Below, piece after piece: positions 5,027 through 6,107 of a stretch of DNA of 17,129 nt. The notes beneath the pieces were generated by a model. The model saw only the letters and a list, made by a program, of their open reading frames with translations. It ran no database searches and was not told where the DNA came from. Made by a program: the position numbers and the translations under genes. Source of the DNA: a virus; UHGV virus genome UHGV-0039940; one strand, given 5' to 3'. Every line of letters begins with the position of its first letter. The first letter of the stretch is position 1.

Positions 5027-5080
5027 AAATTCTCCTGCATCGCTGTATGCTCTACGAGCATCTCTGCGACCATCCATCAT

Positions 5081-5095
5081 CCAAACGTCTCTTCA
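5081..5095. repeat. 15-bp direct repeat, distal copy (fossil cI 3' end downstream of gene A)
   Basis: ccaaacgtctcttca is identical to 5452-5466; on the minus strand the context reads GAAGAGACGTTTGGATGA = E E T F G stop, mimicking the cI terminus. Confidence 0.8.
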
Positions 5096-5096
5096 C

Positions 5097-5438
5097 TCAT
5101 CCGAAGAAGCAGCAATCCGGGTCAGCACGCACAAGCTCAAGCGCATCAGTCAGCGAAAGTTCAGTACTGTACTGATGCCATTTCATATCCTTCCGCATCC
5201 AATAGATTTTCCATCTATCCAGAGAACGTATGTACTTGATTCTTGCTGATGGCAGGATGTTTGTTTCACCTGGGTTGCCCTGCCACACGGGGCGCTGTTC
5301 GCCGATATCTATCGTTTGGTCATTGATGCTATAAACAATATCCAGTTCATTGCGGATATGTTCAGGCGGCCTTATGCTTTCAATGAATTGGTGAACTTCT
5401 TTTTTGACCGCTTGATATTCAAGGTCAGTGAACGCCAT
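5097..5438 (-). CDS. Gene A of the cI-linked cassette: 113-aa hypothetical protein
   Basis: ORF MAFTDLEYQAVKKEVHQFIESIRPPEHIRNELDIVYSINDQ...; its ATG lies 9 nt after the cI TGA stop with AGGAGG between them (TGAGGAGGATAGATG). Confidence 0.65.
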   Translation of the reverse strand: MAFTDLEYQAVKKEVHQFIESIRPPEHIRNELDIVYSINDQTIDIGEQRPVWQGNPGETNILPSARIKYIRSLDRWKIYWMRKDMKWHQYSTELSLTDALELVRADPDCCFFG

Positions 5439-5447
5439 CTATCCTCC

Positions 5448-6107
5448 TCACCCAAACGTCTCTTCAGGCCACTGGCTGGCGATAACTTTCCCAACAACGG
5501 AACAACTCTCATTGCATGGGATCATTGGGTACTGTGGGTTTAGTGGCTGTAGAAACACCTGACCACTATCCCTGATCAGTTTCTTGAAGGTAAACTCATC
5601 ACCACCAAGTCTGGCTATGCAGAAATCACCTGGCTCAACAGCCTGCTCAGGGTCAACAAGAATTAACATCCCGTCAGGAAAACTGGGTTTGGAACCTGTT
5701 GGTGCGGTCATTGAGTTACCTTCAACCTCAAGCCAAAATGCAGAATCACTGGCTTTTTTGGTTGTGCTTACCCATCTCTCCGCATCACCTTTGGTAAAGG
5801 TTCTAAGCTCAGACGAGAACATCCCGGCCTGAACATGAGAAAAAACAGGGTACTCATATTGTTTTTTAACGGGGGCTGATGAGTATTCGCCAACAGGTGA
5901 AAATGTACCGTCGTGGTTGAATGAGACGTTATTAATACCAAGGTACTTAAACACCACACCAATCTCGTCAAGAGATGGATGACGAGATCCGCGCAACCAG
6001 TGACCAATTCCACCCTGCGTCATACCAAGCTCTTCAGCTAACTTCTCTTGAGTTATGCTGAGTTCTTTCATTCTGGATCTAGCCAGTTCATACCATTTCA
6101 TTTTCAT
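5448..6107 (-). CDS. cI: CI repressor with LexA/S24-type autocleavage C-terminal domain and a heterologous N-terminal DNA-binding domain
   Basis: C-terminal part from [15 protein letters not shown]...[57 protein letters not shown] matches lambda cI as I recall it; the N-terminal domain ([37 protein letters not shown]...) is different. Start at 6107 chosen; in-frame alternatives at 6101 and 6170. Confidence 0.85.
5452..5466. repeat. 15-bp direct repeat, proximal copy (authentic cI 3' end)
   Basis: ccaaacgtctcttca encodes the last cI codons (EETFG) on the minus strand. Confidence 0.8.

Follow-up and report, generated by a model that had tools for sequence, protein, structure and literature searches.

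The window analyzed here is a 17,129-nucleotide (nt) stretch of the virus genome UHGV-0039940, taken at its full length, whose immunity region carries, on the minus strand, the genes C, B, A and cI and then, on the plus strand, cro, cII, O and P. The small gene A is bracketed by two copies of the 3′ end of cI, the repressor gene that precedes it. The overall best explanation, and a very probable one, is that the window is a lambda-like immunity-region recombinant in which the cI terminus acted as the recombination joint and the second copy of that terminus is a functionless fossil.

A repeat made of the end of the repressor gene

The preliminary description of this region, made from the letters alone, had reported a 15-mer at both sides of gene A, and this was borne out: CCAAACGTCTCTTCA occurs exactly at 5081–5095 and 5452–5466 on the plus strand, the sole two matches in the window, with no third even when two mismatches were allowed. 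The chance expectation was 0.05, and none of 200 dinucleotide shuffles reached two. The repeat is real, and only its length of 15 bp had been understated. A repeat search gave a full length of 19 nt with one mismatch (95% identity), the copies standing 371 nt apart, with TCATCCAAACGTCTCTTCA as the distal copy at 5077–5095 and TCACCCAAACGTCTCTTCA as the proximal copy at 5448–5466. When pairs of the same geometry were slid along the window, none of 1481 scored as high, and neither did any of 1000 shuffles; a chance repeat was rejected, as no random or slid control scored as high.

Read on the minus strand, both copies give TGAAGAGACGTTTGG(G/A)TGA, or (P)EETFG-stop, so that the stop codon is included in the repeat, and the one mismatch between them falls at the third base of the Gly codon and is synonymous. 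The proximal copy forms the true 3′ end of the 240-amino-acid (aa) cI open reading frame (ORF) at 5448–6170 and forms part of M, the authentic cI terminus (5448–5474, minus strand), with which this ORF of the S24 and helix-turn-helix (HTH) type ends. The distal copy, M′ (5077–5095, minus strand; TGAAGAGACGTTTGGATGA), corresponds to the terminal 19 nt of a cI gene. Its earlier description as a fossil EETFG-stop with no ORF attached stood up well, in that just 14 open in-frame codons lie upstream of it and its frame differs from that of gene A. Including the GGA variant of the Gly codon, M′ is identical to the real cI end in two of the loci compared here, L130 and L121. Between M′ and M lies gene A (5097–5438, minus strand), a DUF3024 gene of 113 aa that makes up the bracketed cassette.

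Relatives with and without gene A

Both parental arrangements are present among the close relatives of the window, and it is on this account that the window is very likely to be a recombinant, with a right (cI-side) part of the L005 type and a left (N-side) part of the L130 type. In L130 (E. coli WCHEC040047) the cI gene ends with ...GAAGAGACGTTTGGATGA, which has the GGATGA ending, and is followed directly by TGGATGGTCGCAGAGATGCTCG-B-C. This cI end with its leader matches the fossil and B leader of the window base for base, the segment 5081–5451 is absent, B-C is 99–100% identical to B-C of the window, and the repressor is WP_001302016.1. The repressor protein of L005 (E. coli 2012C-4227) is identical to that of the window, again WP_001302016.1. 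Its order is cI-M(GGGTGA)-A-M′(GGATGA)-TGGATGG(T/C)CGCAGAGATGC followed by a serine/threonine (Ser/Thr) kinase module, with a gene A that is 99–100% identical to that of the window. The point of exchange is placed by this comparison anywhere within the 38 nt common to L005 and L130, made up of M′ and the adjoining T-half described below. Both parents, the recombinant and the 38-nt exchange interval are readable from public genomes.

The preliminary description had looked to cI-B-C relatives lacking A, and to A beside other repressors with the same flanking motif, as the places to look, and both were found. HK542 and HK244 show 97.6% identity to the window from C into the C-terminal domain of cI, with exactly 371 bp missing, a single motif copy, and cI joined directly to the B leader. 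Together with L130 they are joined by at least 24 complete E. coli genomes in which a synthetic empty-site query was matched without interruption. Gene A also stands behind the 933W-type repressor (L003, L014 and L027), where a non-coding motif copy lies before it. Of 5426 complete E. coli genomes, 18 contain the whole arrangement of the window, with E. coli SCU-104 at 100% identity, and 228 contain the 418-nt A cassette inclusive of its two motif copies (5058–5475). All 228 cassettes share the same two ends.

Two findings that had been named as telling against a scar, namely A accompanied by a single motif copy in all relatives and a frequent recurrence of the 15-mer, were not encountered. 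The second copy is kept in all 228 cassettes and in the Shiga toxin (Stx) phage loci examined, in a decayed state in the Sakai-type phages, and the median was one motif per genome with any match, always at a prophage repressor end. The proposal of an insertion or module-swap scar is thus supported, with the refinement that the scar is not a one-off but an instance of a repeatedly used junction. In place of the suggested insertion of A into cI-B-C, the arrangement is better seen as the product of one crossover, in which a prophage carrying A and a prophage carrying B-C took part. In any given lineage, A may have been either inserted or deleted.

The strains 2012C-4227 and 90-3040 each contain one A-bearing and one empty-site prophage. 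In 2012C-4227 (NZ_CP013029.1) the cI-B-C prophage L129 is found at 1.82 Mb and the cI-A-kinase prophage L005 at 1.03 Mb; the two have nearly the same cI-cro and carry an IS3-family element, after cro in L129 and after cII in L005. Both parental types of the window thus reside together in one cell, which lends indirect support to recombination at M.

The cI terminus as a recurrent joint

The wider use of M was surveyed in IMG/VR with the exact pattern GAAGAGACGTTTGGNTRA, for which an exact 16-nt core was required, and at least 120 loci were obtained. Among the matches listed, 130 occurrences of M had enough flanking sequence for analysis, and the counts that follow refer to these. True ends of long repressor ORFs accounted for 77, with at least three types of C-terminal domain that are divergent at the nucleotide level. 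Another 52 of the 130 copies (40%) were non-coding fossils, mostly about 30–45 nt behind a repressor of the 933W type that ends in ...EAREWLKSS. At least 22 upstream classes and at least 48 downstream classes were met in at least 67 combinations. Across 67 distinct contexts, conservation was 80–100% over CAGTGGCCTGAAGAGACGTTTGG, falling to 30–40% right past the stop codon and to 30–70% upstream. M is therefore what a module boundary should look like: a short conserved island whose neighbouring sequences on either side are unrelated from phage to phage, and whose junction is reused in independent module combinations.

The most telling of these combinations involve the fossil behind the 933W-type repressor, one and the same context of which is joined to at least 10 classes of cargo. 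At least seven of these cargoes (A, the Sakai-type A, B, a terminator and three without a name) are also found behind a lambda-type cI with the same junction. The same junctions with the same cargoes behind unrelated repressors argue for repeated crossovers inside this short patch. In 78 loci with a lambda-type C-terminal domain, ascertained at the protein level, 20 classes of cargo begin directly behind the stop codon. The wobble position of the Gly codon and the stop codon itself change together with the cargo, so that the module boundary falls within the last codon. The last approximately 25 nt of the lambda-type repressor gene may accordingly be regarded as a portable joint, with which cargo moves between phages of unrelated repressors.

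Very small cassettes are bracketed by M as well. In L061 (7552–7656) a hydrophobic ORF of 23 aa, MREYLIVGVVTLLSVVAIVLMVA, starts in the stop codon of one M copy and ends inside the next; in L112 (minus strand; reverse-complement offsets 3480–3625) the bracketed ORF is hydrophobic and 32 aa long, MKIGYIFPAVCGIAGIALLVWFIASGAWMPGA; and in L086 (1145–1710) a cassette of three ORFs with a lipoprotein includes this 32-aa ORF as well.

A scan of species genomes was also made for the host range of the motif, about one third of its matches being lambda-identical contamination and approximately 35 chance matches being expected for a database of this size. In that scan 25 matches in unrelated taxa had lambda-identical flanks on both sides of the motif (L229, L230, L244, L247, L249, L255, L259, L271, L279, L296 and about 15 more), among them Limosilactobacillus, Enterococcus, Helicobacter, Capnocytophaga, Bradyrhizobium, Kitasatospora and Fusobacterium. 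The contigs with coverage given in their names are mostly short and of low coverage, and the matches resemble contamination with lambda DNA or cI vectors.

A second joint and the brackets of other genera

In lambda itself, M at the end of cI is followed by the rexA leader, and a second joint, M2, is formed by the 35 nt that follow the stop codon of lambda cI, TCGGCAAGGTGTTCTGGTCGGCGCATAGCTG (L216, lambda 37115–37226). M2 breaks off sharply after CATAGCTG ahead of different cargoes, and was found at L216, L213 (2440–2480 and 2843–2870), L103, L108, L153 and L163.

Genes of the DUF3024 family occur directly after the repressor in 933W, in Salmonella SE1, ST-87 and SW-70, in a Morganella phage and in Yersinia and Kluyvera prophages; those of Erwinia and Enterobacter are located behind DUF333 or DinI genes. 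The direct-repeat bracket around A is significant in E. coli. In Kluyvera (L213) the bracket consists of a 21-nt M2 repeat with 19 of 21 positions matching, a score reached by none of 409 slid pairs and none of 1000 shuffles, and in Yersinia of a 12-mer, equalled in 1 of 1000 shuffles; for Salmonella SE1, 10 of 1000 shuffles scored as high. The direct-repeat test around A was not significant in Enterobacter and Erwinia, though both flanks resemble M there, and no significant bracket surrounds the DUF3024 gene of Morganella, where an M-like sequence after the gene was rejected: its score is reached by 104 of 1224 background windows, and a bracket repeat is missing. The bracket thus originated on at least two occasions, with different boundary sequences, as would fit unequal joins near the end of the local repressor gene that then spread.

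A broader reading can be offered tentatively, in which M, M2 (…GGTCGGCGCATAGCTG) and the terminator hairpin T would together serve as recombination linkers of a recombinase-independent cassette array behind the repressors of Enterobacterales, with DUF3024 as a specialist of the first position. Crossovers at short homology would add cassettes at the first position, delete them or exchange them, and nested fossils would record the order of events. DUF3024 would have been bracketed independently by M in E. coli, Enterobacter, Salmonella and Erwinia, and by M2 in Kluyvera and perhaps Yersinia. If true, such independent brackets could point to a functional tie with the repressor or to selection on the linkers.

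A challenge to a role for M as a joint comes from the model of Hendrix, in which joins are purely illegitimate and random, those at gene boundaries survive selection, and the homology of the motif plays no part. The first A-M′ joint agrees with such a model, having no usable homology on the A side and being illegitimate for that reason. The lengths of the fossils differ between cassettes (19, 21, 23, 25 and approximately 30–45 nt), and the bracket sequence itself differs, being M2 in Kluyvera and a 12-mer in Yersinia, as expected of joins near the local repressor end. Martinsohn et al. (PMC2327257) found about half of lambdoid mosaics to be without flanking homology. Independent random joins are not expected, however, to give identical junctions, and at least 7 of the 10 cargoes at the 933W-type fossil have base-identical junctions behind lambda-type cI, just as the 228 E. 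coli A cassettes share both of their ends. As a complete account the model is doubtful, and crossovers within M are preferred.

The sequence past the fossil

The homology of every A-bearing E. coli locus to the window ends at 5058, and not at the fossil, whatever comes next, be it B-C, the kinase module or an intact terminator. The stretch between, termed the T-half (TGGATGGTCGCAGAGATGC, 5058–5076, minus strand), is the 5′ arm and loop remnant of a terminator hairpin and travels with M′ behind A. The intact hairpin, GGTCGCAGAG(A/G)TGCGGCC-T6/7, directly follows M in L026, L040 and L104, where with its T-run it forms an intrinsic terminator right behind cI, and it directly follows A-M′ in the Sakai-type Stx phages (L002). 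Ahead of the kinase module the hairpin is without its T-run, and ahead of B it is cut in the loop. With the hairpin in these several states (intact, T-run lost, cut in the loop), the junctions are nested, which is consistent with serial insertions of cargo into an ancestral cI-terminator arrangement.

As an alternative, the empty cI-B-C sites might be the derived state, A having been lost by recombination or replication slippage between the 19-nt repeats. Direct repeats of 19 nt at a distance of 371 bp are a classical substrate for deletion, and L130 and L121 carry the GGA Gly codon typical of the distal copy, as would be left by a deletion favouring M′. The empty sites of the HK542 type, on the other hand, differ at 6 of 24 nt around the joint (GGGTGATGATAAGTCGCCGAG versus GGATGATGGATGGTCGCAGAG) and are not recent deletions. 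M′ with the T-half is also found behind A before the kinase module or a terminator, so that M′ predates the A-B-C combination, and deletion in any case does not account for the first origin of the repeat. General loss of A is hence considered unlikely, and the crossover between an L005-type and an L130-type prophage is retained as the origin of the window.

Is the fossil functional?

The neutrality of M′ was assessed by comparing the window with the Sakai-type locus. Identity between them was 63% for the fossil M′, set beside 92%, 89% and 65% for the first, second and third codon positions of A, 92.6% for the coding M and 94.4% for the C-terminal domain of cI. The predicted RNA fold of either motif copy with its flanks was no better than that of shuffled sequences (z of −0.5 and +0.4), and a structured RNA at the motif was rejected on these values. 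Given a divergence that matches synonymous sites and an unremarkable RNA fold, M′ is concluded to be a neutral scar without function. For annotation, this means that short EETFG-stop remnants, and ORFs such as the long form of B that start in them, are scars rather than genes.

The Sakai-type A itself (L002, 3040–3380; about 50 Stx phage records, including VT2-Sakai, Stx1 and Stx2 converting phages and the PA series) is a pseudogene: its reading frame is shifted at least twice, once in an A-run. The divergence at its codon positions still shows a long history of purifying selection.

The opposite possibility, that the motif is a functional cis element ahead of the cargo, acting in RNA processing, in translational coupling or re-initiation, or as a protein-binding site, draws on its exact conservation in many non-coding copies, on its position directly ahead of the start codons of cargoes, which it sometimes overlaps (GTGATGA in L061, ATGA in L130), and on the Erwinia M′, which is kept at 24 of 28 positions although the A protein there is only 59% identical. 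The fossil nevertheless diverges like synonymous sites between the window-type and Sakai-type loci (63% versus 65%), its RNA structure does not rise above shuffled controls, the cargo genes carry their own Shine-Dalgarno sequences, and many cargoes, B-C included, are stacked without any motif between them. Such an element is quite improbable, and the fossil is better taken as a relic of recombination.

Least plausible of all, to the point of being nearly dismissed, is A as a mobile cassette moved by a transposase or site-specific recombinase, with the repeat as a target-site duplication or attC-like site, since the brackets with different repeats in several genera (M, M2, the 12-mer) resemble target duplications only superficially, while their lengths vary (12, 19, 21 and approximately 24–28 nt across lineages), inverted repeats were absent from both ends of the cassette in a repeat search, the motif is neither palindromic nor hairpin-like, a search of the cassette and its surroundings turned up no gene for a recombinase, and A itself gave no match to a nuclease or recombinase fold.

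A proposed order of events

The order proposed here for the recombinant starts from what is directly seen, namely the repeat, the arrangements of both parents, junctions with sharp edges, a joint that is used again and again, and a fossil that decays neutrally; the enzymology, the direction of individual events and the expression as an operon we infer. In an older event, an unequal join, either illegitimate or at microhomology, would have brought the DNA just past A together with a point 19 nt before the cI stop codon in another phage, giving the A-M′ joint. The distal 19-mer would then be what is left of a second cI gene, its final 19 nt, and would mark the left edge of the B-C module. Later, a single crossover between cI-M-A-M′-T-(kinase), as in 933W and L005, and cI-M′-T-half-B-C, as in L130, with the same cI allele, would have produced the window. 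Homologous crossovers in M, in M′ with the T-half or in the C-terminal domain of cI may have moved A before different cargoes and behind different repressors, catalyzed by RecA or by the phage's own Bet/RecT. As M is common to all phages with the lambda-type C-terminal domain, cargo modules could have dragged the cI terminus along behind unrelated repressors, and the two copies of M would make A deletable, and addable before any cargo that follows an M.

Several points weigh against this proposal. The IMG/VR frequencies are biased toward well-preserved copies, as the exact core was required and only the matches listed were counted. The lambda-type C-terminal domain, of about 400 nt, is approximately 99% conserved in protein and can serve as homology over its whole length, so that crossovers among these phages may also lie outside M. 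Only the fossil contexts, of about 26–45 nt, make M the limiting stretch. In Erwinia, where the A protein is only 59% identical, the sequence after A still agrees with M in 24 of 28 positions and runs into the T hairpin, so M′ looks better kept there than expected, which could reflect constraint or later re-homogenization by recombination. The loci of E. coli, Enterobacter, Salmonella and Erwinia differ by 0–6 nt at the A-M′ joint, which would fit either one old event with small indels or several independent events.

Relation to known systems

The interval between cI and N has been described in PMC8585504, in a passage that cites Degnan 2007, as a hotspot of mosaic diversity in lambdoid phages. 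Occupants of this interval elsewhere, such as rexA-rexB of lambda, hex of 434 (described in PMC3564112), bstA of BTP1 and stk of 933W, are likewise accessory and often anti-phage genes right behind the repressor. Like the cargoes here, they share the repressor promoter and differ between phages of otherwise the same immunity. What differs in the window is the cargo, DUF3024 with phrog_5893 and phrog_5820 in place of rexAB, and the presence of a repressor terminus between stacked cargoes.

Among the Red/Rad52-like recombinases, known for relaxed homologous recombination, the lambda Red system recombines diverged sequences efficiently, and module exchange can proceed via short conserved flanks (PMC2327257). 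This is relevant to a phage that carries Bet/RecT and in which M, a conserved island of about 23–27 nt at a gene boundary, is reused. Short boundary or linker sequences are reportedly a feature of lambdoid module joints, as in the modular theory of Susskind and Botstein and in what Clark et al., cited in PMC2327257, are said to have found for HK620 in 2001. M resembles such linkers, with the difference that it is the coding end of a gene, which has also been preserved in non-coding form, both behind repressors of unrelated type and where one cassette is stacked on another.

Additional genes inserted between others that are adjacent in relatives are reportedly what Juhala, Hendrix et al. termed morons in 2000. 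Gene A is comparable in that it is an extra gene between genes that are adjacent in L130, HK542 and HK244, but it has no promoter of its own and, in the window, no terminator, and its guanine-plus-cytosine fraction of 0.459 matches that of cI, 0.452. A terminator after A-M′ is present in the Sakai-type loci only. Gene A is not a classical moron.

The row of cassettes behind a fixed promoter-proximal gene, each following a short conserved sequence and with addition possible at the first position, also recalls an integron array. It differs from one in having no integrase, no attC hairpin and a repeat of variable length that is the tail of the upstream gene. Among the ORFs scanned at 434–8540 of the window, no integrase was found, the families being those of phage recombination, regulation and replication only. 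Nor does the cassette have the features of a transposon, its bracket being 12, 19, 21 or approximately 24–28 nt long, without inverted repeats, and its content the 113-aa DUF3024 gene alone. Transposon-like and integron-like insertion were both rejected, there being no inverted repeats, hairpin or recombinase and the bracket length being variable.

The window adds a well-resolved case to a phenomenon already known, in which cargo is stacked behind the repressor at a lambdoid module boundary. This is ordinary phage mosaicism, seen here at base resolution, and current concepts of it are unchanged. It nonetheless provides a clean natural example of temperate phages shuffling accessory, probably defensive, genes.

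Genes of the window

The window is part of a lambda-like prophage, with Pfam matches to an Exo fragment, Bet/RecT, Gam, Kil, an Nmad5-domain protein and N. Its repressor (5448–6170, minus strand; Pfam HTH_3 and Peptidase_S24) has the N-terminal HTH, the C-terminal S24 domain of the predicted self-cleaving type and the divergent orientation to cro that characterize lambda-type CI proteins, the cro-like HTH gene being at 6220–6435 on the plus strand, opposite to cI. The C-terminal domain is lambda-type, with 93–97% DNA identity to HK542 per 100-nt window (5500–5799), and the N-terminal domain is of the Stx-phage type, matching Stx-type alleles alone.

Gene A matches PF11225 over profile positions 2–112 of 112 (E = 2.4e-31; 108.7 bits against a cut-off of 24.9), the PADLOC family PDC-S43 over its full length (E = 7e-42) and phrog_3467. 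Between the cI stop codon and the start of A there are 9 nt (5439–5447, minus strand) that read as a ribosome-binding spacer, GGAGGATAG, and this spacer is kept in all A loci of E. coli and Salmonella. The AlphaFold2 (AF2) model of A had a predicted local distance difference test (pLDDT) value of 89.8, and Foldseek gave no match to it in the PDB at E ≤ 0.001, with template modelling (TM) scores of at most 0.39; a PDB sequence search gave a weak match to AvrPto alone (E = 0.07), which was not trusted. A derivation of the C-terminal FG-stop of A from M was rejected, as CF(F/W)G is invariant across the family. A literature search brought up no useful paper on DUF3024 or PDC-S43. The family, a defence candidate in PADLOC, is present in 933W and in some 4% of the complete genomes of E. 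coli, and its position as the first gene after the repressor is conserved.

In Erwinia aphidicola (L212, 2231–4484) and in the E. coli loci L003 and L005, the DUF3024 gene, an ORF of about 153 aa and the Ser/Thr kinase gene are kept together, and a motif copy with a terminator-type hairpin is retained between A and the 153-aa gene from the 933W-type phages to Erwinia. From this conserved linkage, A and the kinase module may work jointly.

The long ORF of gene B (4592–5080, minus strand; 162 aa) belongs to the uncharacterized family phrog_5893, and the stop codon of the fossil overlaps the ATG (GGATGATGG) that opens this long form. Since the PHROG match begins at residue 21 and a strong AGGAG precedes Met19, the true start of B is more probably Met19 near 5026, giving a predicted protein of 144 aa. 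The short form is annotated in HK542 and the long form in L130. Gene C (3975–4595, minus strand; 206 aa), whose start overlaps the B stop, matches the uncharacterized phrog_5820 (E = 1e-76) and has a hydrophobic stretch, IFSVIIAVIVAIPGLV, about 30 residues from its C terminus. Searches with B and C found nothing below E = 0.27 among PDB sequences, and no match for either in PADLOC.

An intrinsic terminator after C (3947–3968, minus strand), with an 8-bp stem that includes 6 GC pairs and a T-run, is the sole strong minus-strand terminator between cI and N, a weaker candidate being located inside cI. The scan of the cI–N interval found no promoter-like site upstream of A or B and no terminator between A and B. 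With this lone strong terminator past C and no promoter-like site before A or B, cI-A-B-C is probably expressed as a single operon from the repressor promoter that would end at 3947–3968.

Farther along the early left operon, the single-strand annealing recombinase Bet/RecT is encoded at 748–1533 on the minus strand (Pfam RecT, E = 2.7e-33) and Gam at 1539–1835 (Pfam Gam, E = 2e-64). The YqaJ-type Exo is represented by a fragment of 105 aa at 434–751 on the minus strand, which matches Pfam YqaJ at profile positions 2–73 of 150 (E = 4.5e-10). Exo may be truncated or frameshifted, and bet and gam appear intact. Between kil and N, an ORF of 227 aa (2410–3093, minus strand) matches Pfam Nmad5 (E = 1.8e-70; nucleotide modification associated domain 5) over its full length, an unusual passenger in a lambdoid early left operon.

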